Shown here piece by piece: positions 1,993 through 59,035 of a stretch of DNA of 64,000 nt (the first letter of the stretch is position 1; every line of letters begins with the position of its first letter). Position numbers and translations under genes: made by a program. Under the pieces are notes generated by a model. That model did no database searches. It worked only from the letters and a program-made list of their open reading frames with translations, and was not told the DNA's origin. Origin of the DNA: Ignavibacteriales bacterium (GTDB lineage: Bacteria; Bacteroidota; Ignavibacteria; Ignavibacteriales; DAOSCP01). Location: the NCBI GenBank assembly GCA_035379625.1, contig DAOSVM010000006.1, positions 11,485 through 75,484 of the forward strand, written 5' to 3'.

Positions 1993-4440
1993 ATGAAAGT
2001 AATGAAATTTGGTGGATCTTCTGTAGGAAATCCTGAAAGAATAAAAAATGTAATAAAAATTATAAACGATAGTTTATTTACAAACAATATATTGATAGTT
2101 GTATTTTCAGCATTTCAAGGTGTAACGGATGAATTAATTAAATTAGGGAACAAGGCAACATCTGGAGTTTTCCCAGAGGATGATTTTAATACTTTAACAA
2201 AAAGACATATGGACGCAATTACAGAATTAGTTGCGATAAAATATAGAAGTAAAGCAATAGCTGATGTTAAAATAATTCTGAATGAGATAGAAGATATATT
2301 AAAAGGTATATCTTACATAAAAGATTTAACACGTAAGACATCAGATGTATTATTAAGTTATGGAGAAAGATTATCTGCCTATATTATTTACAACTCAATG
2401 AAACAATATGAAGATAACGTATATTATCTTGATAGTAGGGATGTGATCAAAACAGATTCTAACTATGGAATGGCAAATGTAAATTTTGAAATAACGAATA
2501 AATTAATACAAAATAGAATTAACAAGCAAGGGCTATATATAACAACAGGTTTTATAGCATCTGATGAGCAAGGGAACACAACAACTTTAGGAAGAGGTGG
2601 TTCTGATTATACTGCTTCTATATTTGGAGCGGCATTAGGTGTAGAAGTTATTGAAATATGGACAGATGTTGATGGTATTTTGACTGCAGATCCACGTTAT
2701 GTCCCATCAGCATTTTCTTTGAAGGATTTAAGTTATGATGAAGCAATGGAACTTTCTCATTTTGGAGCAAAAGTGATTTACCCGCCTACAATGCGCCCAG
2801 CGATGATTAAAAAAATTCCTATATTAGTTAAAAATTCTTTTAATCCAGAATTTCCGGGCACTAAAATTTGTATTAAGCCAACAAAAAATATTTATGATAT
2901 TAAAGGAATATCTAGCTTAAATGACGTTTGTTTGGTTCGTGTGCAAGGAAGTGGTATGATTGGGGTTAGTGGTATTGCTGGAAGGATATTTTCGGCTTTA
3001 GCAAAATCTAATATTAATGTTATTTTGATAACCCAGGCCTCAAGTGAGCATTCTATTTGTTTTGCAATTTTGCCAGAATATGAAAATCAAGCTTTAAAAG
3101 CTTTAAAACAAGAACTGAAATTAGAGATTGCAAATGGTATTGTAAATGAAATTTTGATAGATAAAAATTTATCAATTGTTGCTGTGGTTGGAGAAAATAT
3201 GAGGCATCGTGTTGGTTTAGCAGCTAAGGTTTTTAATTCATTGGGAAAATATGGCGTAAATATTGTTGCTATTGCTCAGGGTTCAACAGAATTAAATATA
3301 TCAGCTGTTATTTCTAAAAATGATGTAGCAAAAGCTCAAAATGCTATACATAATGCATTCTTTTTTGCAAATAGGAAAGAAGTTAATTTATTTATTGTAG
3401 GTTTAGGATTGATTGGTAAAACATTTTTAAAACAAATTAATGAGCGAATTGATTATTTGGTTGAATACCATAATATTCAGCCCAAAATTGTTGGTATTGC
3501 TAATTCTAAAAAAATGCTTATTGATGAGAATGGTATCGATATTTCGCAGATTGATGAAAAATTAATTGATGGTAAAAAAACTGATTTAACTATTTTTACT
3601 CAAAAAATGCAAGATTTAGCTATTCCAAATAAGATTTTTATAGATTGTACAGCTAGTGAAGAGCCTATTAATTTTTATCCTGAAATATTAAATAATAGAA
3701 TATTTATTGTTACACCGAATAAAAAAGCAAATTCTTCAAATATTAAATTTTATCATAAAATTCATTCGGCTGCTAAAGAAAATTATGCTGGTTTTTATTA
3801 CGAAGCTAATGTAGGAGCAGGTTTACCAATTATTAATACAATTAAAGATTTAATTGCATCCGGTGATGAAATTATTAAAATTGAAGGTGTACTATCTGGT
3901 ACTATAAGTTATTTATTTAATAATTTAAAAGGGAATAAAAAATTTAGTGATATTTTAACAGAGATTAAGGGTAAAGGTTTCCTTGAACCAGATCCAAGAG
4001 ATGATTTAAGTGGGATGGATGTTGCCCGTAAAATTCTAATTCTTGCAAGAGAAGCAGGTAGCTTAATTGATTTAAATAAAGTAAATGTTGAAAATTTAAT
4101 TCCTAAACATATTAATATAGTAAGCGTTGAAAATTTTTGGAATAAAATTTACTTATTGGATGATTATTACGAAAAATTAATCGAAAAAGCTGATAAATCT
4201 AATACAGTTTTGAGATATATTGCTACATATAACAAAATTGAGGATAAAGCAAATGCTAAGATTAACTTTATTCCTAAGGAACATCCATTTTTCAATTTAA
4301 GAAATAGTGAAAATATAGTCGCAATTTATACAAATAGATATTTGGAGTTGCCGTTAATTGTTAAAGGACCAGGAGCCGGCGCAGAAGTAACTGCAGGGGG
4401 CGTTTTTGCTGATTTCTTAAAAGCTGCTAAAGTAATTTAA
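1993..4440 (+). CDS. thrA: Bifunctional aspartokinase / homoserine dehydrogenase
   Basis: 815 aa. N-terminal aspartokinase (MKFGGSSVG..), central ACT-like regions, C-terminal homoserine dehydrogenase (..GAGLPII.., ..EPDPRDDLSG.DVARK..). Followed by thrB. Confidence 0.93.
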   Translation: MKVMKFGGSSVGNPERIKNVIKIINDSLFTNNILIVVFSAFQGVTDELIKLGNKATSGVFPEDDFNTLTKRHMDAITELVAIKYRSKAIADVKIILNEIEDILKGISYIKDLTRKTSDVLLSYGERLSAYIIYNSMKQYEDNVYYLDSRDVIKTDSNYGMANVNFEITNKLIQNRINKQGLYITTGFIASDEQGNTTTLGRGGSDYTASIFGAALGVEVIEIWTDVDGILTADPRYVPSAFSLKDLSYDEAMELSHFGAKVIYPPTMRPAMIKKIPILVKNSFNPEFPGTKICIKPTKNIYDIKGISSLNDVCLVRVQGSGMIGVSGIAGRIFSALAKSNINVILITQASSEHSICFAILPEYENQALKALKQELKLEIANGIVNEILIDKNLSIVAVVGENMRHRVGLAAKVFNSLGKYGVNIVAIAQGSTELNISAVISKNDVAKAQNAIHNAFFFANRKEVNLFIVGLGLIGKTFLKQINERIDYLVEYHNIQPKIVGIANSKKMLIDENGIDISQIDEKLIDGKKTDLTIFTQKMQDLAIPNKIFIDCTASEEPINFYPEILNNRIFIVTPNKKANSSNIKFYHKIHSAAKENYAGFYYEANVGAGLPIINTIKDLIASGDEIIKIEGVLSGTISYLFNNLKGNKKFSDILTEIKGKGFLEPDPRDDLSGMDVARKILILAREAGSLIDLNKVNVENLIPKHINIVSVENFWNKIYLLDDYYEKLIEKADKSNTVLRYIATYNKIEDKANAKINFIPKEHPFFNLRNSENIVAIYTNRYLELPLIVKGPGAGAEVTAGGVFADFLKAAKVI

Positions 4441-4449
4441 GGGTTTAAG

Positions 4450-5391
4450 ATGTTAAAAAAAAATTATATTAAAGTATTTTCTCCCGCTACAATAGCTAAT
4501 TTTACTTGTGGTTTTGATATTTTCGGTGTTGCATTGGAAAATCCTGGTGATGTTGTAGAAATAGAAATTAACAATAATTCAAATGGAATAAAAATTTTGG
4601 AAATTACTGGCGATAATGGATTGTTACCTTATGAAATAGAAAAGAACACAGTAACAATATCTTTATTAAAGTTTTTGAATGATTTTGATTTAAAAGTTGG
4701 TTTAAATATTAAAATACATAAAAAAATGCCATTTGGTAGTGGCTTGGGATCAAGTGCTGCAAGTAGTGTAGCTGGCGTATATGCGTTAAATCAGATGTTA
4801 GAAAATCCTTTGCCTAAAGATAAATTATTGGAATATGTTTTAGAAGGCGAAAAAAAAGTAAGTGGTTCTATTCACGCTGATAATGTTGCTGCTTGTTTGT
4901 ATGGTGGATTTATTATTGTTAAGCAATATCCGAAATTGGAAATTATAAAATTAAATGTGAAAAAAAATTATTATTTCTCAATAATACATCCGCATATCGA
5001 AGTAAAAACCGAAGATGCTAGAAAGATTTTGCGAAAGGATATTAAATTAGAACTTGTAACTAAACAATGGGGTAATATTGCTACAACAGTAATTGCTTTG
5101 CAAAATGGTGATGACGAATTGTTGAAAAATTCTTTGATTGATATAATAATTGAGCCTGTCAGATCAATATTTATTCCGGAATTTACCACCATTAAAAATA
5201 TTGCTTATGAAAATGGTGCACTTGCTGCAAGCATTTCTGGTTCCGGCCCATCAGTTTTTTCTGTTTTTAATGATAAATCATTGGCTGAAATTTCGCTAAA
5301 TTTACAAGCTGAGGCACTTAAAAAAATTGGAATTTCATCGGATCTTTATATTAGCCAGATGAATTTTGAAGGTGTAAAGGTAATTCCTTGA
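4450..5391 (+). CDS. thrB: Homoserine kinase
   Basis: 313 aa GHMP kinase with motif PFGSGLGSSAAS. Lies 9 bp downstream of thrA. Confidence 0.9.
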   Translation: MLKKNYIKVFSPATIANFTCGFDIFGVALENPGDVVEIEINNNSNGIKILEITGDNGLLPYEIEKNTVTISLLKFLNDFDLKVGLNIKIHKKMPFGSGLGSSAASSVAGVYALNQMLENPLPKDKLLEYVLEGEKKVSGSIHADNVAACLYGGFIIVKQYPKLEIIKLNVKKNYYFSIIHPHIEVKTEDARKILRKDIKLELVTKQWGNIATTVIALQNGDDELLKNSLIDIIIEPVRSIFIPEFTTIKNIAYENGALAASISGSGPSVFSVFNDKSLAEISLNLQAEALKKIGISSDLYISQMNFEGVKVIP

Positions 5392-5431
5392 TTATTTTAA
5401 ATTTATAGATATTGAAGAGAATCTTTATATT

Positions 5432-6021
5432 TAGCTCGGACGGTGTAGGCTTAAGCCCGTGCGCTGTGCGCACGGGCGGGCTGAAGCCCAAAATATTCGA
5501 TTTACTACGCTATATACAACCTTTTATCAATTGCTTCCAATAATTATATATTTACCATATAGATTTAACATAAATATTTTAATTTGGTTGCAAATTTTAA
5601 AAGCCTGATAATATTTTCGTAAAAATGATATAATTGTATTTACGATATATTAACAAAATTCAGAAATATATTTGTATTTACAATATAATTGTATATACGA
5701 TATATTAGTAATTTTCGATGACATATTTGTAAATACGATATAATAGCTTTTACGATATAATTGTAAATGCAATTATATTATAAAAAAACATCGCATCAAA
5801 TGTAAAAATTTGCAAAATTACATATTAGCTTCGTTAAAAGCTTAATTTTTATCTAACACTTTACGGGTTGCCTGGTATTTTGGAAAGATATGAGTATAAA
5901 GGCTCAAAGCACTACACTTTGTTAGGTGTCAAAGAAAAGATTTTTAGCGGGCCGGAACTGCCCGCTGCCCCTTGCGGCTTGTCACAAGCCGCAAGGGGCT
6001 TAAGCTTACACCGTCTGAGTA
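5432..6021 (+). mobile_element. Non-coding TIR-bounded repeat element, copy 1 (A end to B end on the + strand), 590 bp
   Basis: Left end TA|GCTCGGACGGTGTAGGCTTA; right end TAAGCTTACACCGTCTGAG|TA. Hairpins at 5455-5477 (10-bp stem), 5478-5489, 5946-5966 and 5968-5998 (13-bp perfect stem). AT-rich core holds the 17-bp repeat array. Homologous to the copies at 37503, 54943, 58506 and 25056. Confidence 0.85.
5616..5777 (+). repeat. Tandem array of nine ~17-bp units (consensus WTTGTAWWTACRATATA) organised as 3 x 55-bp higher-order repeats
   Basis: Units read directly: ttcgtaaaaatgatata / attgtatttacgatata / ttaacaaaattcagaaatata / tttgtatttacaatata / attgtatatacgatata / ttagtaattttcgatgacata / tttgtaaatacgatata / atagcttttacgatata / attgtaaatgcaattata. 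Lengths 17+17+21 three times (last unit 18) total 162 bp. Confidence 0.85.
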
Positions 6022-6046
6022 ATATAATAAAAAAAATGAAGATATT

Positions 6047-9467: not shown

Positions 9468-9474
9468 AAAAAAA

Positions 9475-9546
9475 GGGCTACACAGCAATCATCCTTACCG
9501 TTGCTGCCTTCCGGCCCTGGCGGGGTTGGGGACTATGCTGTTAGCC
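9475..9546 (-). ncRNA. ffs: Signal recognition particle RNA (small 4.5S type)
   Basis: Minus-strand RNA: GGCUAACAGCAUAGUCCCCAACCCCGCCAGGGCCGGAAGGCAGCAACGGUAAGGAUGAUUGCUGUGUAGCCC followed by U9. It contains the SRP domain IV signature CAGG-CCGGAAGG-AGCA with a GGAA tetraloop. The 5' GGCUAACAGCA pairs with the 3' UGCUGUGUAGCC. Exact ends are uncertain. Confidence 0.7.
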
Positions 9547-9550
9547 AATG

Positions 9551-25055: not shown

Positions 25056-25116
25056 TAGCTCGGACAGTGTAAGCTTATCCCGCGCATTAGCGCGGGTAGC
25101 TATCGCTAAAAATATA
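25056..25116 (+). mobile_element. Truncated copy of the repeat element (A end only)
   Basis: TA|GCTCGGACAGTGTAAGCTTA, hairpin cccgcgc-atta-gcgcggg, mini-hairpin tagc-tatc-gcta, then AAAAATAT. There is weak similarity to the element interior up to about 25250 (..attttaccataaaatattt..). No repeat array, B end or second TIR. Confidence 0.7.
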
Positions 25117-25343
25117 GAAATGAATTAAATCCATATTTTATATTTCAAATTGTCAAAATTATTTTACCATAAAATATTTATATACTAGTATTTGTAAAAT
25201 TGCTTTATCATTTGCATTTGACTTGCCTAAATAAATATTCCTCTTTAAAATTTCTTTTAATTTAAAACAAAATTAAAAAATTGTAAAATATTTTGAAAAA
25301 AAAGTTTTTATTTGTTAATTTTAAGAAAAAAATAAGGTTTGTT

Positions 25344-26243
25344 ATGGGAATATTAAATAATATGCTTGTTTATGGTATTCAAATTATGCCAAAACCACTT
25401 GTTAAACAGTTCGCAAAAAACTATATTGCAGGCGACTCATTAAATGATGCTATAAGTGTTATCAATAAACTGTGGGAAAATAATTATTTTTCGACTATTG
25501 ATTTATTAGGCGAGTTTGTTGATGGAAGATTCTTGGCTATAAAAGCAAAAAATGATATCATTGATGATATTTTGACAATCAGAAGATTAAACTTACCTAC
25601 ATATCACTCATTAAAATTAACACAATTAGGAATTGATGTAGATAAAGAGTTATGCATAGAGAACTTAAAAGAAATTTTGACTGTAGCGAAACAGGAAAAT
25701 GTATTTGTTAGAATTGATATGGAAAATACTCCTTATACTACAATAACATTAGATATTTATAAGGAGATGAGAAAATATTTTGATAATTTTGGGATTGTTT
25801 TGCAGGCATATTTGTATAGAACTGAACAAGATATTGAAGAATTAAAAGATTATAAACCAAATGTAAGATTAGTAAAAGGAATTTATATAGAAGATAAAAA
25901 ATATGCAATAAAAGACAAACAAGGTATAAGAAATAATTATATGAAATTATTGGAAAAAATGATTGATTATGGATATTACGTAGCAATTGCAACTCACGAT
26001 GATTATTTAACGAATAAAGCTATTGAAATGATTAATCAAAAAGGGATTACAAAAGATAAATTTGAATTTCAAATGCTTTTGGGCGTTCGCGAAAAATTAA
26101 GAGAAGAGATTAAAAATCAAGGCTATAAAGTTACAGTATATGTACCTTATGGAATGGATTGGTATGGGTACTCTATAAGAAGATTTAAAGAAAATCCATC
26201 TGTAGCGATGCACGTTGCTAAAAGTATATTTCATATAACATAA
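25344..26243 (+). CDS. Proline dehydrogenase
   Basis: About 299 aa from ATG 25344 (the track's TTG at 25293 is unlikely). Has ..IDLLGEFV.., ..VRIDMEN.., ..LVKGIY.., ..ATHD.. and ..FEFQMLLGVR.., typical of monofunctional PutA-type proline dehydrogenase. Confidence 0.8.
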   Translation: MGILNNMLVYGIQIMPKPLVKQFAKNYIAGDSLNDAISVINKLWENNYFSTIDLLGEFVDGRFLAIKAKNDIIDDILTIRRLNLPTYHSLKLTQLGIDVDKELCIENLKEILTVAKQENVFVRIDMENTPYTTITLDIYKEMRKYFDNFGIVLQAYLYRTEQDIEELKDYKPNVRLVKGIYIEDKKYAIKDKQGIRNNYMKLLEKMIDYGYYVAIATHDDYLTNKAIEMINQKGITKDKFEFQMLLGVREKLREEIKNQGYKVTVYVPYGMDWYGYSIRRFKENPSVAMHVAKSIFHIT

Positions 26244-26244
26244 A

Positions 26245-27267
26245 CTATTTGATGTAGTCAATAAAGTAATCAGAAAAGAAGGAAGGGAAAGCTTTGTAGT
26301 TAAGAGAAAAAGTTTTCCCTTCTTTATATATATTATAAGCACGATATGCTATCATAGCAGCATTATCACCACAATAGGATAAATCTGGGAAAACGTATTG
26401 TTTATTTATGTTTTCTGCAATAGTTCTTATTTCTTGACGTAATAAAGAATTTGCAGCAACTCCACCAACAACGGCTATGCTATTAAATTTAAATTCTTTT
26501 GAAGCTAATTCAATTTTTTTTGTTAGTGATTTTACAATAGTATATTCAAATGAAGCACAAATATCATAGAGATCATTATCTGGAATTGGAGTAGCAGGGA
26601 AATTATCTCTAACGTAATATAAAACAGATGTTTTAATTCCACTGTAAGAAAAATTGTATGGATTAGGAAGATTAGCAATAGGAAATTTTATTGCAAATTT
26701 ATTACCATTTTGAGCAGCTCGAGAAAGTTTAGGCCCGCCGGGATAACCTAAACCTAATAATTTAGCTACTTTATCAAATGCTTCGCCAGCGGCATCGTCT
26801 ATAGTTGAACCTAATTTAATAATTTTGTAATGGCTTTCAACAAGAAGTAGCATAGTATGTCCACCAGAGACGACTAAAGTTAAAACAGGAAATTCAGGTT
26901 GTGGGCTCATTAAAAAACTGGAAAAAATATGTCCTTCTATATGATTAACAGGAATAAATGGCTTTTGTAAAGAGAATGCCAATCCTTTTGCAAAAGTTAA
27001 TCCAACAAGCAAAGCTCCAATTAATCCAGGACCTGCTGTTGCACCAATTACATCAATATCAGAAAGATTTAGGTTAGTTGATTTTAATGCTTCAGTTAAT
27101 AAAGGTTTTATGGTTTGTAAATGTGCACGACTGGAAAGTTCTGGAACTACTCCACCGTAAATTTTATGAAAATCTTGTGAATAAATTAAATTTACTAAAA
27201 CTTTTTCATCTTCTAAAATAGCAACGGAGGTTTCGTCGCAGGATGTTTCTATTCCTAATACTTTCAT
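26245..27267 (-). CDS. tsaD: tRNA N6-adenosine threonylcarbamoyltransferase
   Basis: 340 aa with MKVLGIETSCDETSVAI.., ..HIEGHI.. and ..VVSGGHT.. Confidence 0.92.
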   Translation of the reverse strand: MKVLGIETSCDETSVAILEDEKVLVNLIYSQDFHKIYGGVVPELSSRAHLQTIKPLLTEALKSTNLNLSDIDVIGATAGPGLIGALLVGLTFAKGLAFSLQKPFIPVNHIEGHIFSSFLMSPQPEFPVLTLVVSGGHTMLLLVESHYKIIKLGSTIDDAAGEAFDKVAKLLGLGYPGGPKLSRAAQNGNKFAIKFPIANLPNPYNFSYSGIKTSVLYYVRDNFPATPIPDNDLYDICASFEYTIVKSLTKKIELASKEFKFNSIAVVGGVAANSLLRQEIRTIAENINKQYVFPDLSYCGDNAAMIAYRAYNIYKEGKTFSLNYKAFPSFFSDYFIDYIK

Positions 27268-27394
27268 ATTTTGTAAAATTAATTAAACAAAAATACACAA
27301 AAAAAACTTAATTTTAAATTGTTATTTTTGATGGGTTGTCGATTGAATAAACTAAAATATTTAAATTTGTGTTAAATATAAAAAAGGTTGCAAT

Positions 27395-29011
27395 ATGATA
27401 AAAGATGAAATATTAAAAAAAATAGGTATAATAATCAATATTTTGAAATATTATGATGAAAATAAATTCAAAATTTTAGCTTATGAGAAAGTTATTGATA
27501 TTATTGAAAAAATTAATGAAAATGAATTGATTTCGTTACTTCAAGAGAAAAGAATAACAGAAGTTGAAGGAATTGGAAAGGGTATTAGTGAAGTTTTATA
27601 TGAAATTTATGAAAATGGCAATGCAAAAATAATTAATGAATTTGTAGAAAATTATGGCGAGGAATTTTTAGATTTGTTTAAGATTAAAGGTTTAGGCGTA
27701 AAAAATATAAAAAAACTTTTTGATTTGTATGGTGTTAATTCATTTGATAAGTTGGATGAATTGTTGGCAAGTGGTGTAAAATTAAAAGAACCTAAATTGA
27801 AAGAAAGTTTAATAAAGAATATAAGAGAACAAATTCCATTTTTGAAAGAAAGTAAGTATAAGTATATATATCCAATAGCCTTGCGAAAAGCTGAGAGGAT
27901 GAAAAAAGTATTAGAAGAAATAGAGGGCGTTGAAATAGTAGAGTTTACGGGTGAAATAGAACGATACGCAGAAGTAGTAAATTTTATAGAGATGGTAGTG
28001 TTATGTAATGGGGATTTATTTAATGAATTGGTGAAAAATTTTGGAAATGTAGAACAAAGAAAAATAAAATTATTTGATTTAGAGCTTGATATCTATCTAA
28101 TTTATTATGATGGGGCACATTATAAGTTATACCACGTTTACGGAAAAAATGATTTAGGGAAAGTTATCAAGTTGACGCGGGCAACGCTTATACTGTCCGA
28201 GCCAATAAAAGATTTAAAAATATTTGAAAAATTTATACCAGAGATGTGGGAAATTGAGAATATAGGGAAAGAGGTTGAAAATGAAAAAATAGTAAAGTAT
28301 GAAGATATTGTTAGTGTTTTGCATTTTCATACGAATTGGAGTGATGGTAGTAATACATTGGAAGAGATGTTTGATGGGATAGAAAAGAGTAAATTTGAGA
28401 TTGCTGGGGTGTGCGATCACAGTAAATCGTCGTTTTGGGCTAACGGATTGAGTGAGGAGGAGGTTTTACAGCAGCATAAAGTTATTGAAGAGTTGCAAAA
28501 AAAGTATAGGATTAAGTTATTAAAAGGCATAGAGTGCGATATACATAAAGATGGTAGTTTGGATTATGGAGATGGTTTTTTGAAAGAGTTTGATTTTGTG
28601 GTAGCTGCTATTCATCAATTTACAGATGATGATGAGGAATTTTATACAAAGAGGATGATAAAAGCAATTGAGAATCAATATGTTAATATAATAGCTCATC
28701 CAACAGGTCGACTATTACTAACAAGGCTGCCGTATCCGATAGATATTTATAAGGTTATAGATGCTTGTGCAAGTAATAATGTAGCAATTGAAATAAACTC
28801 TACTCCATCTAGAATGGATTTAAGTTGGAAGTATTTGGATTATGCGATGAATAGAGGGGCGAGATTTGCTATTAATCCTGATGCGCATTCGACACAGGAA
28901 ATTTTTAATATTGAATATGGTGTTAAATCTGCAAGAAAGGCAGGTGTTTATAAAGAATATGTTATAAATACATATAAATTGGATGAGTTGTTAAGGTGGT
29001 TTAATAAGTAA
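27395..29011 (+). CDS. PolX-like protein (HhH/pol-beta-like N-terminal region + C-terminal PHP phosphoesterase domain)
   Basis: 538 aa. Has ..VEGIGKGISE.. and ..IKGLGVKNIKKL.. HhH motifs, and a PHP domain from ..LHFHTNWSDGS... The middle (28186-28206) contains a sequence resembling the repeat-element terminus. Confidence 0.65.
   Translation: MIKDEILKKIGIIINILKYYDENKFKILAYEKVIDIIEKINENELISLLQEKRITEVEGIGKGISEVLYEIYENGNAKIINEFVENYGEEFLDLFKIKGLGVKNIKKLFDLYGVNSFDKLDELLASGVKLKEPKLKESLIKNIREQIPFLKESKYKYIYPIALRKAERMKKVLEEIEGVEIVEFTGEIERYAEVVNFIEMVVLCNGDLFNELVKNFGNVEQRKIKLFDLELDIYLIYYDGAHYKLYHVYGKNDLGKVIKLTRATLILSEPIKDLKIFEKFIPEMWEIENIGKEVENEKIVKYEDIVSVLHFHTNWSDGSNTLEEMFDGIEKSKFEIAGVCDHSKSSFWANGLSEEEVLQQHKVIEELQKKYRIKLLKGIECDIHKDGSLDYGDGFLKEFDFVVAAIHQFTDDDEEFYTKRMIKAIENQYVNIIAHPTGRLLLTRLPYPIDIYKVIDACASNNVAIEINSTPSRMDLSWKYLDYAMNRGARFAINPDAHSTQEIFNIEYGVKSARKAGVYKEYVINTYKLDELLRWFNK
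28186..28206 (+). repeat. Solo TIR-like remnant of the repeat element inside the PolX-like ORF
   Basis: cgcttatactgtccgagccaat (28185-28206) versus the copy-5 terminus agcttacactgtccgagctaat gives 19/22 identities, same polarity as a right end. It is preceded by a GC-rich mini-palindrome gcgggcaacgc. Confidence 0.5.
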
Positions 29012-37451: not shown

Positions 37452-37483
37452 AGCAAGGAAGCTTTAGCGACCTTGCTTTTTTT
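37452..37483 (+). terminator. Rho-independent terminator
   Basis: agcaagg..(loop)..ccttgct followed by a T-run. Confidence 0.6.
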
Positions 37484-37502: not shown

Positions 37503-37992
37503 TAGCTCGGACGGTATAAGCTTAGCCCCCGTGCGCACGCAGGCGCACGGGGGCAGCGGGCCGGAACGGCCCGCAAAAATGATAAATCTTACGAAGCCGC
37601 TGTGTAATATTATAAATTTATTAATTTGATGTGTTTTTTATATAATTGTATTGACGATTATATTGTAAAAACAATAATATAGTAAATGCGAATATATTTT
37701 TAAAAGTTGTAATAATATCGTATATGCAATTATATCGTAATAGCGAATATATTTTAAAAATTGTTTAAATATCGTAAATGCAAATATATTGTATATACGA
37801 ATATATTATAAGACTTTTGCATTTGCCAGTAATATTTAAAATTTTTCGAATATTTTAATATGGTAAATAATGTAAATGTTGTAAGTAGTTGATAATATTA
37901 TAGATAAGTAGGCATAATTGGAATAATTTTTGGCGTCAGCCTGCCCGTGCGCCTTCGTGCGCACGGGCTTTATGCTTACACTGTCTGAGCTA
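37503..37992 (-). mobile_element. Non-coding TIR-bounded repeat element, copy 3 (B end first on the + strand), 490 bp
   Basis: TA|GCTCGGACGGTATAAGCTTA ... TATGCTTACACTGTCTGAGC|TA. B-end hairpins at 37526-37553 and gcgggccg-gaa-cggcccgc; A-end hairpin cccgtgcgc..gcgcacggg at about 37945-37967. 17-bp array at about 37641-37805. Confidence 0.85.
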
Positions 37993-52521: not shown

Positions 52522-53851
52522 ATGGATGTCTTATTACTCTCCCGAATCCAATTTGCAATTACTGTAGGGTTTCATTTTTTGTATCCTCCAATGAGTATTG
52601 GGCTTGCTGCTTTAATCGTTTTTTTGGAGGGTATGTATTTAAAAACAAAAGACAAAATGTATGAAGAATTAGTAAAATTTTGGATCAAAATTTTTGCTGC
52701 AACATTTGCTGTAGGAGTAGCAACAGGCATAGTAATGGAATTTGAGTTTGGTACTAATTGGTCTAAATATTCTCGTTTTGTTGGGGATGTTTTTGGTAGT
52801 CCTCTTGCTGCCGAAGGCGTTTTCGCTTTCTTCCTTGAATCTACTTTCTTAGGAGTATTACTTTTCGGTTGGAAAAAAGTTAGTCCCAAAATGCATTTTT
52901 TCTCTGCTTTAATGGTAGCTATAGGTTCAATATTAAGTGCTTTTTGGATTTTAGTTGCTAACTCTTGGCAACAAACACCACAAGGTTATCATATTGTCAA
53001 TAATAATGGAGTTTTAAGAGCTGAAATTGTTGATTTTTGGGCAATGGTTTTTCAATCCATCAACTGTTGATAGATTAATTCATACAATATTAGCTTCCTT
53101 TATGACAGGTGGTTTTTTTATGCTAAGTATAGCAGCCTATTATTTATTAAAGAAAGTTCACGTTGAACATGCAAAAAAAATGTTTAAAGTTGCTATTATT
53201 TTTACAGCTGTAGTATCACTACTTGAGTTAGCATCAGGACATAGTAATTCCCAAATGATTGCAAAACATCAACCAGCTAAACTTGCTGCTGCTGAAGCAC
53301 ATTATGACTCTTTATCAAAAGCTACACTTTATTTATTCGGTTGGGTTGACGAAAAAGAACAAAAAGTTTACGGAATTGGCATCCCTGGTATGTTAAGCTT
53401 CCTAATTTCGGGTGATTTTAATTATCCTGTTAAAGGTTTAAATGCTTTCAAAAAAGATGAAATTCCACCAGTCAATTTTGTCTTCCAAAGCTATCATATT
53501 ATGGTTGCACTTGGAATGTTAATGATCGCATTAAGTTTATTCGGCGTTTACCTTCTGTGGAAAAATAAAATTGATGCCTATCCATGGTTTCTCAAAATCC
53601 TTTTAATATCATTTATTTTCCCTCAACTTGCAAATCAGTTTGGTTGGATTACTGCTGAAGTCGGTAGGCAACCTTGGGTGGTTTATGGATTAATGAAAAC
53701 CAAAGATGCTTTTTCTCCTATATTAGATGCCGGGCAAGTATTATTTTCTATAATTCTATTTTCTTCTATCTATTTGTTATTGTTAGCTTTATTTGTTTTT
53801 GTCGTAGTTAAAAAAGTTAAAGCTGGCCCAGTAGAACTTAATAAAAATTAG
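52522..53851 (+). pseudogene. cydA: Cytochrome bd ubiquinol oxidase subunit I, split by a +1 frameshift at the T5 run 53048-53052
   Basis: ORF 52522-53070 (..[16 protein letters not shown].., ..[14 protein letters not shown]..) and ORF 53027-53851 (..[11 protein letters not shown].., ..GRQPWVVYG..) together make one CydA. Removing one base in atggTTTTTcaat restores ..[15 protein letters not shown].. Confidence 0.85.
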
Positions 53852-54942: not shown

Positions 54943-55507
54943 TAGCTCAGACAGTGTAAGCTTAAAGCCCGTGCGCCGTGCGGCGCACGGGCAGGCTAAC
55001 GCCCAAAATTTTTCCCCAATACATTCCAATTAATTTTACCAATTTATTTTAATATTTTTACATTTAGCAAAATAACTAAATATTGTTTAATTATTCTTTT
55101 GTATGCTTAATGATAAATACAAAATTAAACATAATATCGTTATAATTATACATCAGATATTACAATAAAATTGCGTTTAAGATATATTATTAATTTTCAA
55201 TAATATATATACAAAAACAATATAATTGCTTATACGATATAATTGTAAATACAATCATATTATATAGAAATCAGAAATAAATATAAAAATATGCAAGATT
55301 ACATATTAGATTTAACAAAAAAAATCAGTCAAACATACAATCTGCACTGCATTTTGACGCTGCATTATAAGAGATGTGGAATTATGAAACTGTTAAGCTA
55401 CACTTTGTAAGGTGATAATGAAAAGATTTTTAGCGGGCCGTTCCGGCCCGCTGCCCCTTGCAGCTTTCCACAAGCTGCAAGGGGCTATACCTATACTGTC
55501 TGAGCTA
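54943..55507 (+). mobile_element. Non-coding TIR-bounded repeat element, copy 4 (A end to B end on the + strand), 565 bp
   Basis: TA|GCTCAGACAGTGTAAGCTTA ... TATACCTATACTGTCTGAGC|TA. A hairpin 54967-54992 (11-bp stem). B hairpins are agcgggccg-ttc-cggcccgct and 55454-55484 (13-bp perfect stem). The 17-bp array at about 55130-55262 is more degenerate. Confidence 0.85.
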
Positions 55508-57285: not shown

Positions 57286-58629
57286 ATGTTACCCCAAAAA
57301 AATGACACATTTTGGAGAAACCTTGTTACAGGTAAAATCGAACATGAATTTAATTTTATGGTTGCTAGTCTACTTGTAAAAAGATTAAATTTAACTACTT
57401 ATTTCGACCCTTCTGAAGAAACCATAAGTAAATGTATTGATGAAGTATATGATTTTTTTACAAAGTATCAAAAATTTTTAAATAAAGATATAATTCCATT
57501 GCTTGGTATTCCAAGTATTATGCAACTTATGACAGTTGAGCAGGCAAAAGAAGAAATTAAAAAGGGAAAAAATTTAATTATTGCCGGAAATGAAAAAATA
57601 CTATCTGCTTTACCAGCCGGTAATTGGATAGCTGGTACAAGTAATTCTTTCATTGATAAAAACTCGTGTATAACAACTGATGATTTATTGTTTGTAAATG
57701 AACTACCATACTACATTGAAAATATAAAAATTGAAGAATTTACAGAAAATAATATTCAAAATATAAATAGAAATTCCTACGATAATGGCTTTACAATATT
57801 AATTTTACCATTTGAAAGTAAAATACATATTAAATATGCAAAAAATGCAGCGTTCTTTGAAAGTATTTATACATCACCTATAATAGGTTGGATAGCTGGA
57901 GATATTGATAATTCCCGAGCAAAAATATTTAATGGTAAAGAGCTTACATCATCATCTCATAAAGGCATTGCAATGTATTGCGAACTACCCAAAGATAAAA
58001 CTGCAAAATTAAGTATAATAAATTTGTTTAAACCAAATTTAAATTATAAAATTGAATTTTTAGAAGATAGTTTCTACATTAATGAAGCCTTAGTAAACGG
58101 TAAAAAAGTTAAATTTTTAGAATTTTTAAAAAGCATGAATTACGATATAAAAAACCCGCTTACAGCAAATTTGTATGGTTCCTTCATAAATGTAAGCTTT
58201 AAAGAAATTATTAATGACAATATTTATATGTACGCCCCTGTTTTCAAAGGAACTGAATACCATTTATCGATACCTATAAGTAATTACGTAGATGAATTTA
58301 ATTCAATAGAACAAATAAACGCTAACCCAGTATTTAGTTGTCATTGTATATTAAATTATAAATATTCGGAGTTAGAAGGGAAAAAATTAAATAATTTTTA
58401 TGGACCGTCTACATATGGAGAAATAGGCTATATTTTACTAAATCAGACAGTAGCATATTTAGAAATATTAAAAAAAAGCTGTCTTGTAAGGCAGCTTATT
58501 TTATTTAGCTCAGACAGTATAGGCATAGCCTCTTGCGGCTTGTGCCAAGCCGCAAGAGGCAGCGGGCCGGAACGGCCCGCTAAAACTCTTTCTTTATCAC
58601 CTTACAAAGAGCGGTGCTTTATGGCCTAA
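57286..58629 (+). CDS. Hypothetical cytoplasmic protein; the last ~41 codons are read from a terminator and repeat-element copy 5
   Basis: 447-aa ORF with no recognisable motif. From about 58476 the frame passes through a terminator hairpin and then the element B end (..FSSDSIGIASCGLCQAARGSGPERPAK..). Confidence 0.5.
   Translation: MLPQKNDTFWRNLVTGKIEHEFNFMVASLLVKRLNLTTYFDPSEETISKCIDEVYDFFTKYQKFLNKDIIPLLGIPSIMQLMTVEQAKEEIKKGKNLIIAGNEKILSALPAGNWIAGTSNSFIDKNSCITTDDLLFVNELPYYIENIKIEEFTENNIQNINRNSYDNGFTILILPFESKIHIKYAKNAAFFESIYTSPIIGWIAGDIDNSRAKIFNGKELTSSSHKGIAMYCELPKDKTAKLSIINLFKPNLNYKIEFLEDSFYINEALVNGKKVKFLEFLKSMNYDIKNPLTANLYGSFINVSFKEIINDNIYMYAPVFKGTEYHLSIPISNYVDEFNSIEQINANPVFSCHCILNYKYSELEGKKLNNFYGPSTYGEIGYILLNQTVAYLEILKKSCLVRQLILFSSDSIGIASCGLCQAARGSGPERPAKTLSLSPYKERCFMA
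58476..58505 (+). terminator. Rho-independent terminator-like hairpin (inside the 3' end of ORF 57286-58629)
   Basis: aagctgtc-ttgtaa-ggcagctt followed by attttattt. The sequence is related to the terminator at 57151. Confidence 0.6.
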
Positions 58630-59035
58630 ATATTCAAATCTTTCCAAAATACGCGGCAGCTTACAATTGATGCGATTTTTTTTTATAATATAACTGCATT
58701 CCCAATTATATCGTAAAATCAATTATATTGTATTTACAAATATATTATTAAAAATTACTAATATATCGTATATACAATTATATTACAAATACAAATATAT
58801 TTTTAAAAAAAAGAATATATCGAAAATACAATTATATCGTAATTACGAAAATATTTTAATATTTTTAAAGTTTGGTATTACTTTGGAAAATTTTTAATCA
58901 ATAGTTATATTGGTAGATGTATAAATGTTGTATATGGTTGATATTATGTAAGATATGGTTTAATTAGTGAAATATATTTTGGGCGTTAGCCCGCCCGTGC
59001 GGCGCACGGGCTTTAAGCTTACACTGTCCGAGCTA
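58506..59035 (-). mobile_element. Non-coding TIR-bounded repeat element, copy 5 (B end first on the + strand), 530 bp
   Basis: TA|GCTCAGACAGTATAGGCATA ... TTAAGCTTACACTGTCCGAGC|TA. B hairpins are 58529-58559 (13-bp perfect stem) and gcgggccg-gaa-cggcccgc. A hairpin is cccgtgc-ggc-gcacggg near 58994-59010. The interior aligns well with the reverse complement of copy 1. Confidence 0.85.
58689..58849 (-). repeat. Tandem array of nine ~17-bp units (reverse-complement form TATATYGTAWWTACAAW), 3 x ~55 bp
   Basis: Units: tataactgcattcccaat / tatatcgtaaaatcaat / tatattgtatttacaaa / tatattattaaaaattactaa / tatatcgtatatacaat / tatattacaaatacaaa / tatatttttaaaaaaaagaa / tatatcgaaaatacaat / tatatcgtaattacgaa. 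Confidence 0.85.

Follow-up and report, generated by a model that had tools for sequence, protein, structure and literature searches.

A Non-coding Element Family of Uncultured Ignavibacteriales with Covarying Hairpins at One End

Introduction

A 64,000-nucleotide stretch of DNA from an Ignavibacteriales bacterium (contig DAOSVM010000006.1, positions 11,485 to 75,484; the whole stretch is referred to below as the window) contains two adjacent GC-rich hairpins at positions 5946-5998. According to a preliminary description of the window, these hairpins recur in several copies, each difference in one stem arm is matched by a complementary change in the other, and this pattern indicates selection on secondary structure, in single-stranded DNA or in RNA, rather than on primary sequence. 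The locus thus raises the question of what the hairpins belong to, and whether it is their pairing that has been maintained. We found that they are the B-end subterminal pair of a previously undescribed non-coding element of ~0.55 kb. On balance we favor the view that the family represents non-autonomous mobile elements, that is, miniature inverted-repeat transposable elements (MITEs) occasionally with cargo genes, that are abundant in uncultured Ignavibacteriales and use the hairpins as structural cis-acting parts. The initial observation is confirmed, and its interpretation is partly supported.

Composition and distribution of the element family

The tips of the element carry a 22-bp terminal inverted repeat (TIR) with the pattern TAGCTCRGACRGTRTARGCWTA, which has 10 matches in the window at up to three mismatches, compared with 0.00 in shuffled sequences. 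The window contains four complete copies, a solo end, and a TIR remnant that lies within a gene. Related loci were obtained by a metagenome scan that yielded at least 106 stretches with ~1 Mb of fetched DNA, and all counts from these loci are lower bounds. They contain at least 220 TIR matches, which correspond to at least 206 unique ends from several samples. At least 77 elements have the 22-bp TIR at both ends and span 151-1036 bp, with a median of ~540 bp; at least 55 of these TIR pairs combine an A-type with a B-type end.

Among the matches listed from the genome collection is a named Ignavibacteriales metagenome-assembled genome, and the best named relatives of a U32 peptidase encoded next to an element also come from Ignavibacteriales. 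The elements are the sole sequence common to the window and the other loci (75-93% identity), and thus the family is present in several distinct genomes. For example, copy 1 over its full length is 81% identical to copies in L098 and L032, and copy 5 is 93% identical to the copy in L002/L027. No element matches were found in a viral contig collection or in a plasmid collection. No Rfam 15 family matches the element, the best score across copy 1 being that of RsaH (27 bits, with a threshold of 50); the only window match at the Rfam gathering threshold is the bacterial small signal recognition particle RNA (RF00169, 53.9 bits) at 9469-9550 on the minus strand. A full-text literature search found the TIR sequence in no paper, and no papers that pair Ignavibacteria with MITE or insertion sequence (IS) terms.

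Each end is a module of ~65-80 nt, in which the TIR is followed by a GC-rich perfect hairpin of 8-16 bp (hairpin 1), a mini-hairpin, and an A run. The A end combines the GCCCGTGCGC(C) stem with GGGCTAACGCCC, and the B end combines a GCCCCTTGCRGCTT or GCCCACGTGCGGC stem with AGCGGGCCGGAACGGCCCGCT; a third end type, C (ACCGCACAACT...), also occurs. Because the G+C content of the window is ~29%, the end modules are conspicuous in composition. The same B module is attached to at least four unrelated interior types. Consensus conservation reaches 0.9-1.0 in the TIR and stems and 0.4-0.8 in the interiors. In the loops it is 0.3-0.5, and they are close to free, as had been noted earlier. The consensus fold of 46 sequences retains the two local hairpins alone, with no conserved pairing beyond them. 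A three-way junction resembling that of adeno-associated virus inverted terminal repeats, with the TIR paired to an interior block, was suggested by single-sequence folds and was rejected, since the consensus keeps two hairpins only.

The interiors are non-coding or contain unrelated cargo, and no transposase was found inside. The commonest interior is AT-rich and includes an array of three 55-nt repeats with a 17-nt sub-period. Its unit is an operator-like palindrome, TACRAT-WTA-ATYGTA, for which 24 motif matches were found, 20 of them within elements, compared with 5.4 expected. These palindromes resemble repeated operator, centromere, or iteron sites, and also occur in elements with C-type ends (L041, L104). 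Several other identities were considered and rejected. A tRNA-like origin of TAGCTCAG... is contradicted by ARAGORN, which finds no tRNA, and by the absence of a complementary D-stem partner, while a group II intron, a retron, an attC site, and a known small RNA are all without Rfam support.

Covariation at the B end

The hairpins quoted in the preliminary description are indeed located at 5968-5998 (copy 1), 37526-37553 (copy 3), 55454-55484 (copy 4), and 58529-58559 (copy 5) for the outer B-end stem, at 5455-5477, 54967-54992, and 25079-25096 for the A-end stem, and at 25097-25108 for the tagc/gcta mini-hairpin of copy 2. The paired differences between arms are real as well, with G-C replaced by A-T between copies 1 and 4, and C-G by T-A in copy 5. 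In the broader set of ends, a TIR-adjacent stem of at least 7 bp is present in 176 of 203 cases. Most of these stems are perfect (147), whereas 25 have one mismatch and four have two. Stem size varies from 7 to 16 bp and loop size from 3 to 10 nt, and 49 distinct perfect arms were observed.

Such diversity bears on one possible explanation, namely that the palindromes are double-stranded sites for a dimeric protein, with half-sites that change together. The perfect palindromes do adjoin a conserved 22-mer. However, a dimer reading the sequence would fix its half-site, whereas here 49 arms coexist over the whole range of stem and loop sizes. The interior TACRAT-WTA-ATYGTA palindrome behaves as an operator-like site with a conserved sequence, in contrast to the stems. 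A dimer-binding role of the stems is thus highly improbable.

Covariation was analyzed in two alignments of B ends. Of the cells in the MAFFT alignment of 53 B1-type ends, 94.7% are paired. Both sides have changed in seven pairs, whereas shuffles give 2.7 (0/500), and the alignment has a covariation score of 0.085, compared with 0.038 in shuffles. In the covariance-model alignment of 82 B-type ends, which was fitted to the structure and hence is biased towards pairing, and to which a strict cut-off against reverse-strand palindrome echoes was applied, 11 of 24 pairs change on both sides, with a score of 0.165 against 0.045 in shuffles (0/500) and at most 0.027 in slid controls. When the two sides of a pair were hit independently in a simulation, at a rate taken from 25 unpaired cells, 0.05 compensated cells were expected, with a maximum of two in 20,000 runs. 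The observed number is 11, representing nine distinct pair states with the common G-C/A-T polymorphism excluded. Compensated changes at the B end therefore exceed the independent-hit expectation more than 200-fold. The B mini-hairpin also has compensated variants, GCTGGCC/GGCCAGC and GCGGGTC/GACCCGC. Pairing at the B end is kept through compensated change, much of it probably templated.

Sequence conservation at the A end

The A-end stem had been thought to behave in the same way as the B-end stem. This holds for minor classes only, in which compensated variants are GCCTGC/GCAGGC, GCCAGC/GCTGGC, and CCCGCGC of copy 2. The dominant stem GCCCGTGCGC(C), represented by 63 copies, contains no compensated helix-1 pairs, and its covariation score is 0.023, compared with 0.026 in shuffles. 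Thus, the covariation test that had been proposed for both end modules is positive at the B end and negative at the dominant A end. Conservation of pairing over sequence is upheld for the B outer hairpin and mini-hairpin, both of which covary, but not for the common A-end stem, which is conserved as a sequence.

The B-end stem of copy 3 is a special case. Rather than being unrelated to the other stems, as first described, it is an A-like variant: its sequence CCCCCGTGCGC is the A-end core CCCGTGCGC, and it falls into a graded stem series that includes GCCCC-T-TGCGG, GCCCC-CG-TGCGG (L103), GCCC-ACG-TGCGG, and GCC-CG-TGCGC.

Some A ends have kept the TIR and lack both hairpins, as in L002 (1691-1725), L053 (4019), L024 (542), and L086 (556). 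The hairpins of these ends were lost via deletions between short GCCC repeats, and the L002 copy is otherwise 93% identical to copy 5.

Origin of the paired changes

Several features of the paired changes point to hairpin-templated strand switching and copy-to-copy conversion. Indels in one arm have their counterpart in the other (T to CG, CT to ACG), and a chimeric stem is found in L103. Double changes of the transversion type, for which there is no wobble intermediate, occur about as often as those of the transition type. The mini-hairpin loop, read from the TIR inwards, is GGAAC in the majority of copies and its reverse complement, GTTCC, in three, namely copy 1 (5950-5962) and the B ends of L061 and L066, and these three have differing hairpin-1 backgrounds. 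A replacement of 3 nt in a loop is observed between otherwise ~99% identical orthologues. Template switching can create or repair a stem in one event (PMC8794818), and one-step switching probably supplies many of the paired changes in this family. Stepwise change also occurs, since mismatched intermediates are present for two compensated states (T-A preceded by T·G in one and by T·C in the other). In the preliminary description, conversion of whole palindromes in place of independent double substitutions was named as an origin that would speak against selection on structure. This objection applies in part: signs of one-step templated change or conversion are evident, but the stepwise intermediates mean that these processes are not the sole source.

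Carried to its limit, the same evidence would suggest that there is no selection on structure, and that template switching together with ectopic conversion among more than 100 copies per genome both keeps and changes the palindromes. Compensated indels and multi-base changes, the chimeric stem, the inverted loops on different backgrounds, the loop replacement in a near-identical orthologue, and the frequency of transversion-type compensations all agree with this possibility, as do identity breakpoints within the TIR in L037/L106. However, it leaves unexplained the presence of a hairpin in the same TIR-adjacent place in the A, B, and C subfamilies, which have different stems, and the fact that conservation is ~10 times higher in the stems than in the interior. 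Because mismatched intermediates survive in resident copies and strains, in-place correction is not fast. A mutational mechanism supplies variants and does not alone prevent their decay. We consider it improbable as a complete explanation; it is best regarded as the mutational source within an explanation based on mobile elements with selected ends.

Resident copies decay without compensation, as a comparison of orthologues in near-identical strains illustrates. Such orthologues differ by single uncompensated stem hits, a 38-bp deletion in the array, and the 3-nt loop replacement mentioned above. In L124, the orthologue of copy 4 carries a single uncompensated change in its A stem, copy 5 differs from its L117 orthologue by a single substitution, and the orthologues in L109-L111 have an intact pair where the copy 1 mini-hairpin has an A·G mismatch. 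Stem decay is ~1.2% per site, whereas interiors differ by 7-25%. From the low stem decay and the divergent interiors we infer that the resident copies are young, and that most divergence arose among source lineages with constrained ends, a view with which the strain orthologues agree.

DNA or RNA as the folded form

The pattern of substitutions does not separate the two forms of folding, single-stranded DNA and RNA, that had been suggested. Transition mismatches have no strand bias (8 G·T/T·G and 11 A·C/C·A), and hence the folded strand, and DNA as opposed to RNA, are indistinguishable from this comparison; strain orthologues gain only uncompensated hits.

If the hairpins act in RNA, they could be outward intrinsic terminators or 3'-end stabilizers for transcripts that start in the AT-rich interior, with pairing kept for termination or RNA stability. 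Each 55-nt repeat unit bears a TATATTTG box, which would be a Bacteroidetes-type -7-like box pointing from A to B, and sigma-70-like sites in the interior number 10, compared with 4.9 in shuffles. The stems are GC-rich, perfect, and 8-16 bp long with 3-5-nt loops, as expected for an intrinsic terminator, the two tandem hairpins resemble strong terminators, and the predicted RNA folds are very stable (z = -5.6). Terminator-like repeat families, such as SPRITE, are known (PMC3184786). The two ends differ in their outward tails. The consensus A end reads GGGC-TTTATGCTT, with five T in eight positions, whereas the covarying B end has only TTAAGCTT or TATGCCTA, with three to four T in eight, and the terminator scan of copy 1 gave zero. 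The strand bias expected from tolerated G·U pairs is absent (in B ends alone the ratio is 6:2, not significant), double changes without a wobble intermediate are as common as those with one, and resident copies decay uncompensated. Moreover, the same end module bounds interiors without the promoter-like array, as well as gene cargo of 2-9 kb. Maintenance of the hairpins for a function in RNA is thus distinctly unlikely. In the reading that we favor, the folded form would be DNA, either single-stranded or a cruciform.

Insertion sites and relation to single-strand transposition

The elements are intergenic and located downstream of genes, in 18 convergent, 20 tandem, and three divergent contexts. 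Approximately 35-40% of ends abut an inward-pointing terminator-like hairpin, with B ends usually 8-14 nt from its stem. The two flanks are alike in being weakly T-rich and poor in G, and neither has a fixed motif. Contigs often end at an element, and assemblies break there. A second repeat, composed of the hairpin GCAAGSnnGC...GCnnSCTTGC followed by TTTTTTTATTTTAAAA...CTTCAT, is often seen directly outside the TIR, for instance at 37453-37476 in the window and in many flanks of other loci (L011, L054, L084); it may serve as a favored target or form an outer portion of some copies.

No target-site duplication was found for 76 elements: direct repeats of 4-8 nt occur in at most 1/76 at offsets of 0-3 nt, and matches of 1-3 nt are at the level expected from composition. 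The tip bases are variable (TGG, GGG, TTA) and, by inspection and without a statistic, tend to go with end subtypes. Thus the tips appear to belong to the element, and a TA duplication hidden in TAGCTC is unlikely. In 28 of 39 elements, and in 17 of the 20 where |skew| exceeds 0.15, A-to-B runs against the G-rich flank strand (p = 0.009 for the 39 elements, uncorrected, with skew confounded with gene strand). There is no bias relative to the direction of neighboring genes (9/20), and no preference for the end that faces the upstream gene (B 35, A 32).

Some of these properties would be expected if the element were moved as single-stranded DNA by an HUH/Y1 enzyme (an IS200/IS605-type TnpA or a RAYT) that recognizes hairpins on one strand, as in PATEs and REPINs. 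HUH-style recognition had been suggested in the preliminary description. In common with IS200/IS605 elements and PATEs, the present family has hairpins a short distance inside both tips (~22 nt here, ~10-20 nt there) and lacks a target duplication. The B end keeps structure and not sequence, and an orientation bias without a gene-direction bias is what a replication-strand preference would give, although the signal is modest and confounded with gene-strand composition. IS200/IS605 elements have no TIRs. Here, by contrast, the tips are 22-bp inverted repeats, and one strand therefore presents complementary, not identical, ends. Further differences are the T-rich bias on both flanks, in place of a one-sided target tetranucleotide, and the perfect hairpins with variable loops, which offer no conserved bulge or other irregularity for a protein to read. 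A Pfam scan of window ORFs gave no Y1/HUH gene, TnpA, or TnpB, and no ORF family recurs in the fetched loci. HUH-style recognition is thus unsupported, and transposition of this type is unlikely.

Two other groups of hairpin-bearing elements are instructive here. REPINs, in which compensatory changes similarly keep pairing (PMC3116915), also consist of two inverted hairpin units that form one replicative unit, with a short conserved sequence beside the palindrome, a high copy number in intergenic regions, and no duplication. However, a REPIN is a doublet of ~70-110 bp that folds into one long hairpin, whereas the units described here are 280-1000 bp apart and enclose modular interiors and sometimes genes. 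The arrangement is the reverse of that in REP sequences, since here the hairpin is variable and the flanking 22-mer is conserved. Helitron and IS91 elements resemble the family in having a GC-rich near-end hairpin kept as a structure, in the lack of duplication, and in the capture of neighboring genes, and the asymmetry between a sequence-conserved A end and a structure-conserved B end would fit their origin and termination ends. Unlike the present family, Helitron and IS91 elements are devoid of long inverted repeats at their termini and end in fixed dinucleotides. The present analysis yielded no Rep/Y2 gene.

Cargo genes and a shared chromosomal slot

In some loci, TIR pairs enclose genes, including those for restriction-modification and other defense functions. 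Examples are an N6/N4 DNA methylase with a RAMA domain together with a 289-aa protein (L048, 2257-4623), the type I specificity subunit HsdS (L019, 3752-5723), a 75-aa acidic ORF (L030, 4650-5496), and a 256-aa repeat protein without a Pfam match (L098, 2442-4495). In L037 (2144-11525) the TIRs bound a 9.4-kb defense island that encodes a PLD-SNF2 helicase, a Schlafen/AlbA_2 protein, an Eco57I/MmeI-type methylase, and an S-adenosylmethionine-dependent methyltransferase. At the same chromosomal point in a different population, L106 has a 546-bp A-B element (5184-5729). The right flanks of the two loci are 99.7% identical, with the identity beginning within the TIR, whereas the left flanks are ~80% identical overall and 95% identical in the last 160 bp. 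Either the ends also act as exchange boundaries, or insertion is highly site-specific.

The L037 island also includes a 151-bp TIR-bounded mini-element without hairpins (4286-4436), located inside the uninterrupted 1213-aa PLD-SNF2 ORF. After the PolX gene of the window (see below), it is the second case of TIR sequence in a coding region.

A more far-reaching proposal is that the family represents an undescribed system of transposition or cassette exchange, whose enzyme would read the 22 nt together with a structure-only hairpin and leave no duplication, with the A end defined by sequence and the B end by structure. Such a system would often insert just past terminators and, at fixed slots, transfer or swap defense genes (restriction-modification, SNF2/PLD, Schlafen-like) among Ignavibacteriales chromosomes. 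We regard this proposal as speculative and rather unlikely in its full form.

Proposed mechanism and its weak points

Mobility is suggested by the intergenic contexts, the assembly breaks, the defense cargo, and the slot with two different contents. In the mechanism that we propose for a mobile element, the end module would be the cis-acting part on which a trans-supplied enzyme depends for copying or moving the element. The 22-mer would provide sequence specificity, and the adjacent hairpins would be required as structures that extrude when the DNA is single-stranded or torsionally stressed in the course of the reaction. If the hairpins are needed as structures for spread, propagating lineages would retain perfect stems while the stem sequence drifts; templated events would supply variants, and propagation would filter them for intact stems. 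Selection would then act via propagation and not via a host function, as the uncompensated hits in strain orthologues and the unbiased mismatches also suggest, and the folded form would be DNA. Many of the paired changes would have appeared in one step, by hairpin-templated switching or conversion, and been retained afterwards.

Several results weigh against this mobile-element reading. No transposase, integrase, HUH/Y1, TnpA, or TnpB was found among the window ORFs scanned against Pfam, no multi-copy transposase-like family in the fetched loci (659 ORFs of 180 aa or more), and no full-length IS with these ends in either set; mobility is thus deduced from distribution and not from mechanism. 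No empty site was found by a junction search over all fetched loci. Exact-protein look-ups returned only copy-carrying strains. In relatives at 76-80% protein identity the synteny differs, and 21 kb of their DNA contains no copy. Hence the exact termini and the lack of duplication rest on 76 occupied sites. The structure-only mode of conservation is demonstrated for the B end and not for both ends, and the hairpins may have a role in RNA. Finally, the point shared by L037 and L106 reflects either very site-specific insertion or old copies homogenized by conversion. If old copies are kept uniform by conversion, the argument from young copies and selection in source lineages becomes weaker.

Individual copies and neighboring features in the window

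Copy 1 is a complete A-to-B element of 591 bp on the plus strand (5432-6022), with TIR matches at both ends. Its A end contains a TIR without mismatches (5432-5453), hairpin 1 of the sequence-conserved stem class, GCCCGTGCGC-TGT-GCGCACGGGC (5455-5477), and the mini-hairpin GGGC-TGAA-GCCC (5478-5489), all on the plus strand. The interior tandem array detected by TRF, with periods of 17 and 55 nt and the TACRAT-WTA-ATYGTA unit, occupies 5607-5765 (plus strand). At the B end, also on the plus strand, the mini-hairpin AGCGGGCCGGAACTGCCCGCT (5946-5966), with one A·G mismatch and the minority flipped loop, precedes the initially flagged, covarying hairpin 1, GCCCCTTGCGGCTTG-TCA-CAAGCCGCAAGGGGC (5967-5999). 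The outer stem at 5968-5998 has 15 bp if G5967/C5999 is included. The B-end TIR, a TTACTC... tip variant with two mismatches, is located at 6001-6022 on the minus strand and is an inverted copy of 5432-5453.

Copy 2 is a solo A-type end at 25056-25108 on the plus strand, with the TIR at 25056-25077, the hairpin CCCGCGC-ATTA-GCGCGGG at 25079-25096, whose stem class is also found in L067, and the mini-hairpin TAGC-TATC-GCTA at 25097-25108, all on the plus strand. A TIR-like 22-mer with three mismatches, followed by GCCCGCG, is present at 28183-28204 on the minus strand within an intact PolX/PHP ORF (27395-29011), in a part of PolX that is not alignable to solved structures; its chance expectation is 0.03 at up to four mismatches. 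This 22-mer and the solo end have the rare CCCGCG stem type in common and face each other 3.1 kb apart. A 3.1-kb transposase element between them (25056-28204) was considered and rejected, because the genes encoded there, for proline dehydrogenase, TsaD, and the front part of PolX, are all housekeeping genes, and because the TIR at 28183-28204 lies inside an intact ORF.

Copy 3 is a complete 490-bp element on the minus strand (37503-37992), that is, B-to-A on the plus strand. Its B-end hairpin 1 with the A-like stem, GCCCCCGTGCGC-ACGCAG-GCGCACGGGGGC (37525-37554, plus strand), scores 51.7 bits with the B-end model and is followed by the mini-hairpin GCGGGCCGGAACGGCCCGC (37556-37574, plus strand). 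The A-end hairpins occupy 37932-37968 on the plus strand, with the mini-hairpin at 37932-37941 and hairpin 1, GCCCGTGCGC-CTTCGT-GCGCACGGGC, at 37943-37968. Copy 4 is a complete A-to-B element of 565 bp on the plus strand (54943-55507), with TIRs at 54943-54964 and 55486-55507, the A hairpin at 54967-54992, the B mini-hairpin at 55432-55452, and B hairpin 1 at 55453-55485, all three hairpins on the plus strand. Copy 5, of 530 bp on the minus strand (58506-59035), is again complete and reads B-to-A on the plus strand. It has TIRs at 58506-58527 and 59014-59035, B hairpin 1 (GCCTCTTGC.../...GCAAGAGGC) at 58528-58560, the B mini-hairpin at 58561-58581, the A mini-hairpin at 58981-58992, and the A hairpin at 58993-59011. 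Interior tandem arrays with periods of 17 and 55 nt are located at 37660-37811, 55162-55270, and 58703-58859 in copies 3, 4, and 5, respectively.

ORFs of 414, 414, and 398 aa next to copies 1, 3, and 5 were considered as paralogous transposases and rejected, as they encode a U32 peptidase, an imidazolonepropionase-like amidohydrolase, and a Cys/Met pyridoxal phosphate enzyme; other identified neighbors of elements are housekeeping genes. The DUF6976 gene (57286-58629, plus strand) has no stop codon before a terminator-like hairpin at 58468-58500 and reads into copy 5, so that its last ~41 codons consist of the copy 5 TIR and hairpins. Its Pfam domain ends at residue 394 of 447, and the L117 gene call is identical. 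The sequence aatCAGACAGTAgCATAt at 58440-58463, 40 nt outside the B-end TIR of copy 5, is similar to the TIR core and may be a decayed older end. Elsewhere in the window, the gene for cytochrome bd subunit I is split into overlapping ORFs (52522-53070 and 53027-53851) by a frameshift or a sequencing error; it is a single 442-aa gene in L120, L121, and L123 and is also split in L122.

Comparison with related repeats and significance

Among the described groups of bacterial repeats, the family is similar to MITEs and mobile insertion cassettes, such as the Correia elements of Neisseria and MIC231 of Bacillus cereus, which are also short, multi-copy, and intergenic, and have TIRs and no internal transposase. 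As in mobile insertion cassettes, some members have passenger genes, and no mobilizing enzyme was found here, just as none is known for Correia elements. Unlike these groups, the family has no target duplication in 76 elements, no cognate IS found in the window or the fetched loci, two obligatory hairpins beside each TIR, and an operator-like interior array. Another point of comparison is the bcr1 repeat of the Bacillus cereus group, which is intergenic and mobile and whose fold is maintained by compensatory base-pair changes (PMC3184786). However, bcr1 is ~155 bp long, has 5-bp flanking direct repeats, and folds as a whole, whereas only the end modules are structured in the present elements.

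Even if it is merely another MITE, the family is useful for annotation, as its copies break assemblies, extend at least one ORF, and leave TIR remnants in genes. If the proposed reading is correct, it would be a high-copy family in a poorly studied phylum that combines sequence signals and structure-only signals at its ends with the lack of duplication, a combination that no standard class of bacterial transposons would fit cleanly. Its hundreds of young copies would provide a natural data set for separating selection on pairing from one-step templated mutation. The copies with cargo, together with the slot occupied by either a 0.5-kb element or a 9.4-kb island, would suggest that these ends mark exchange points for defense genes.

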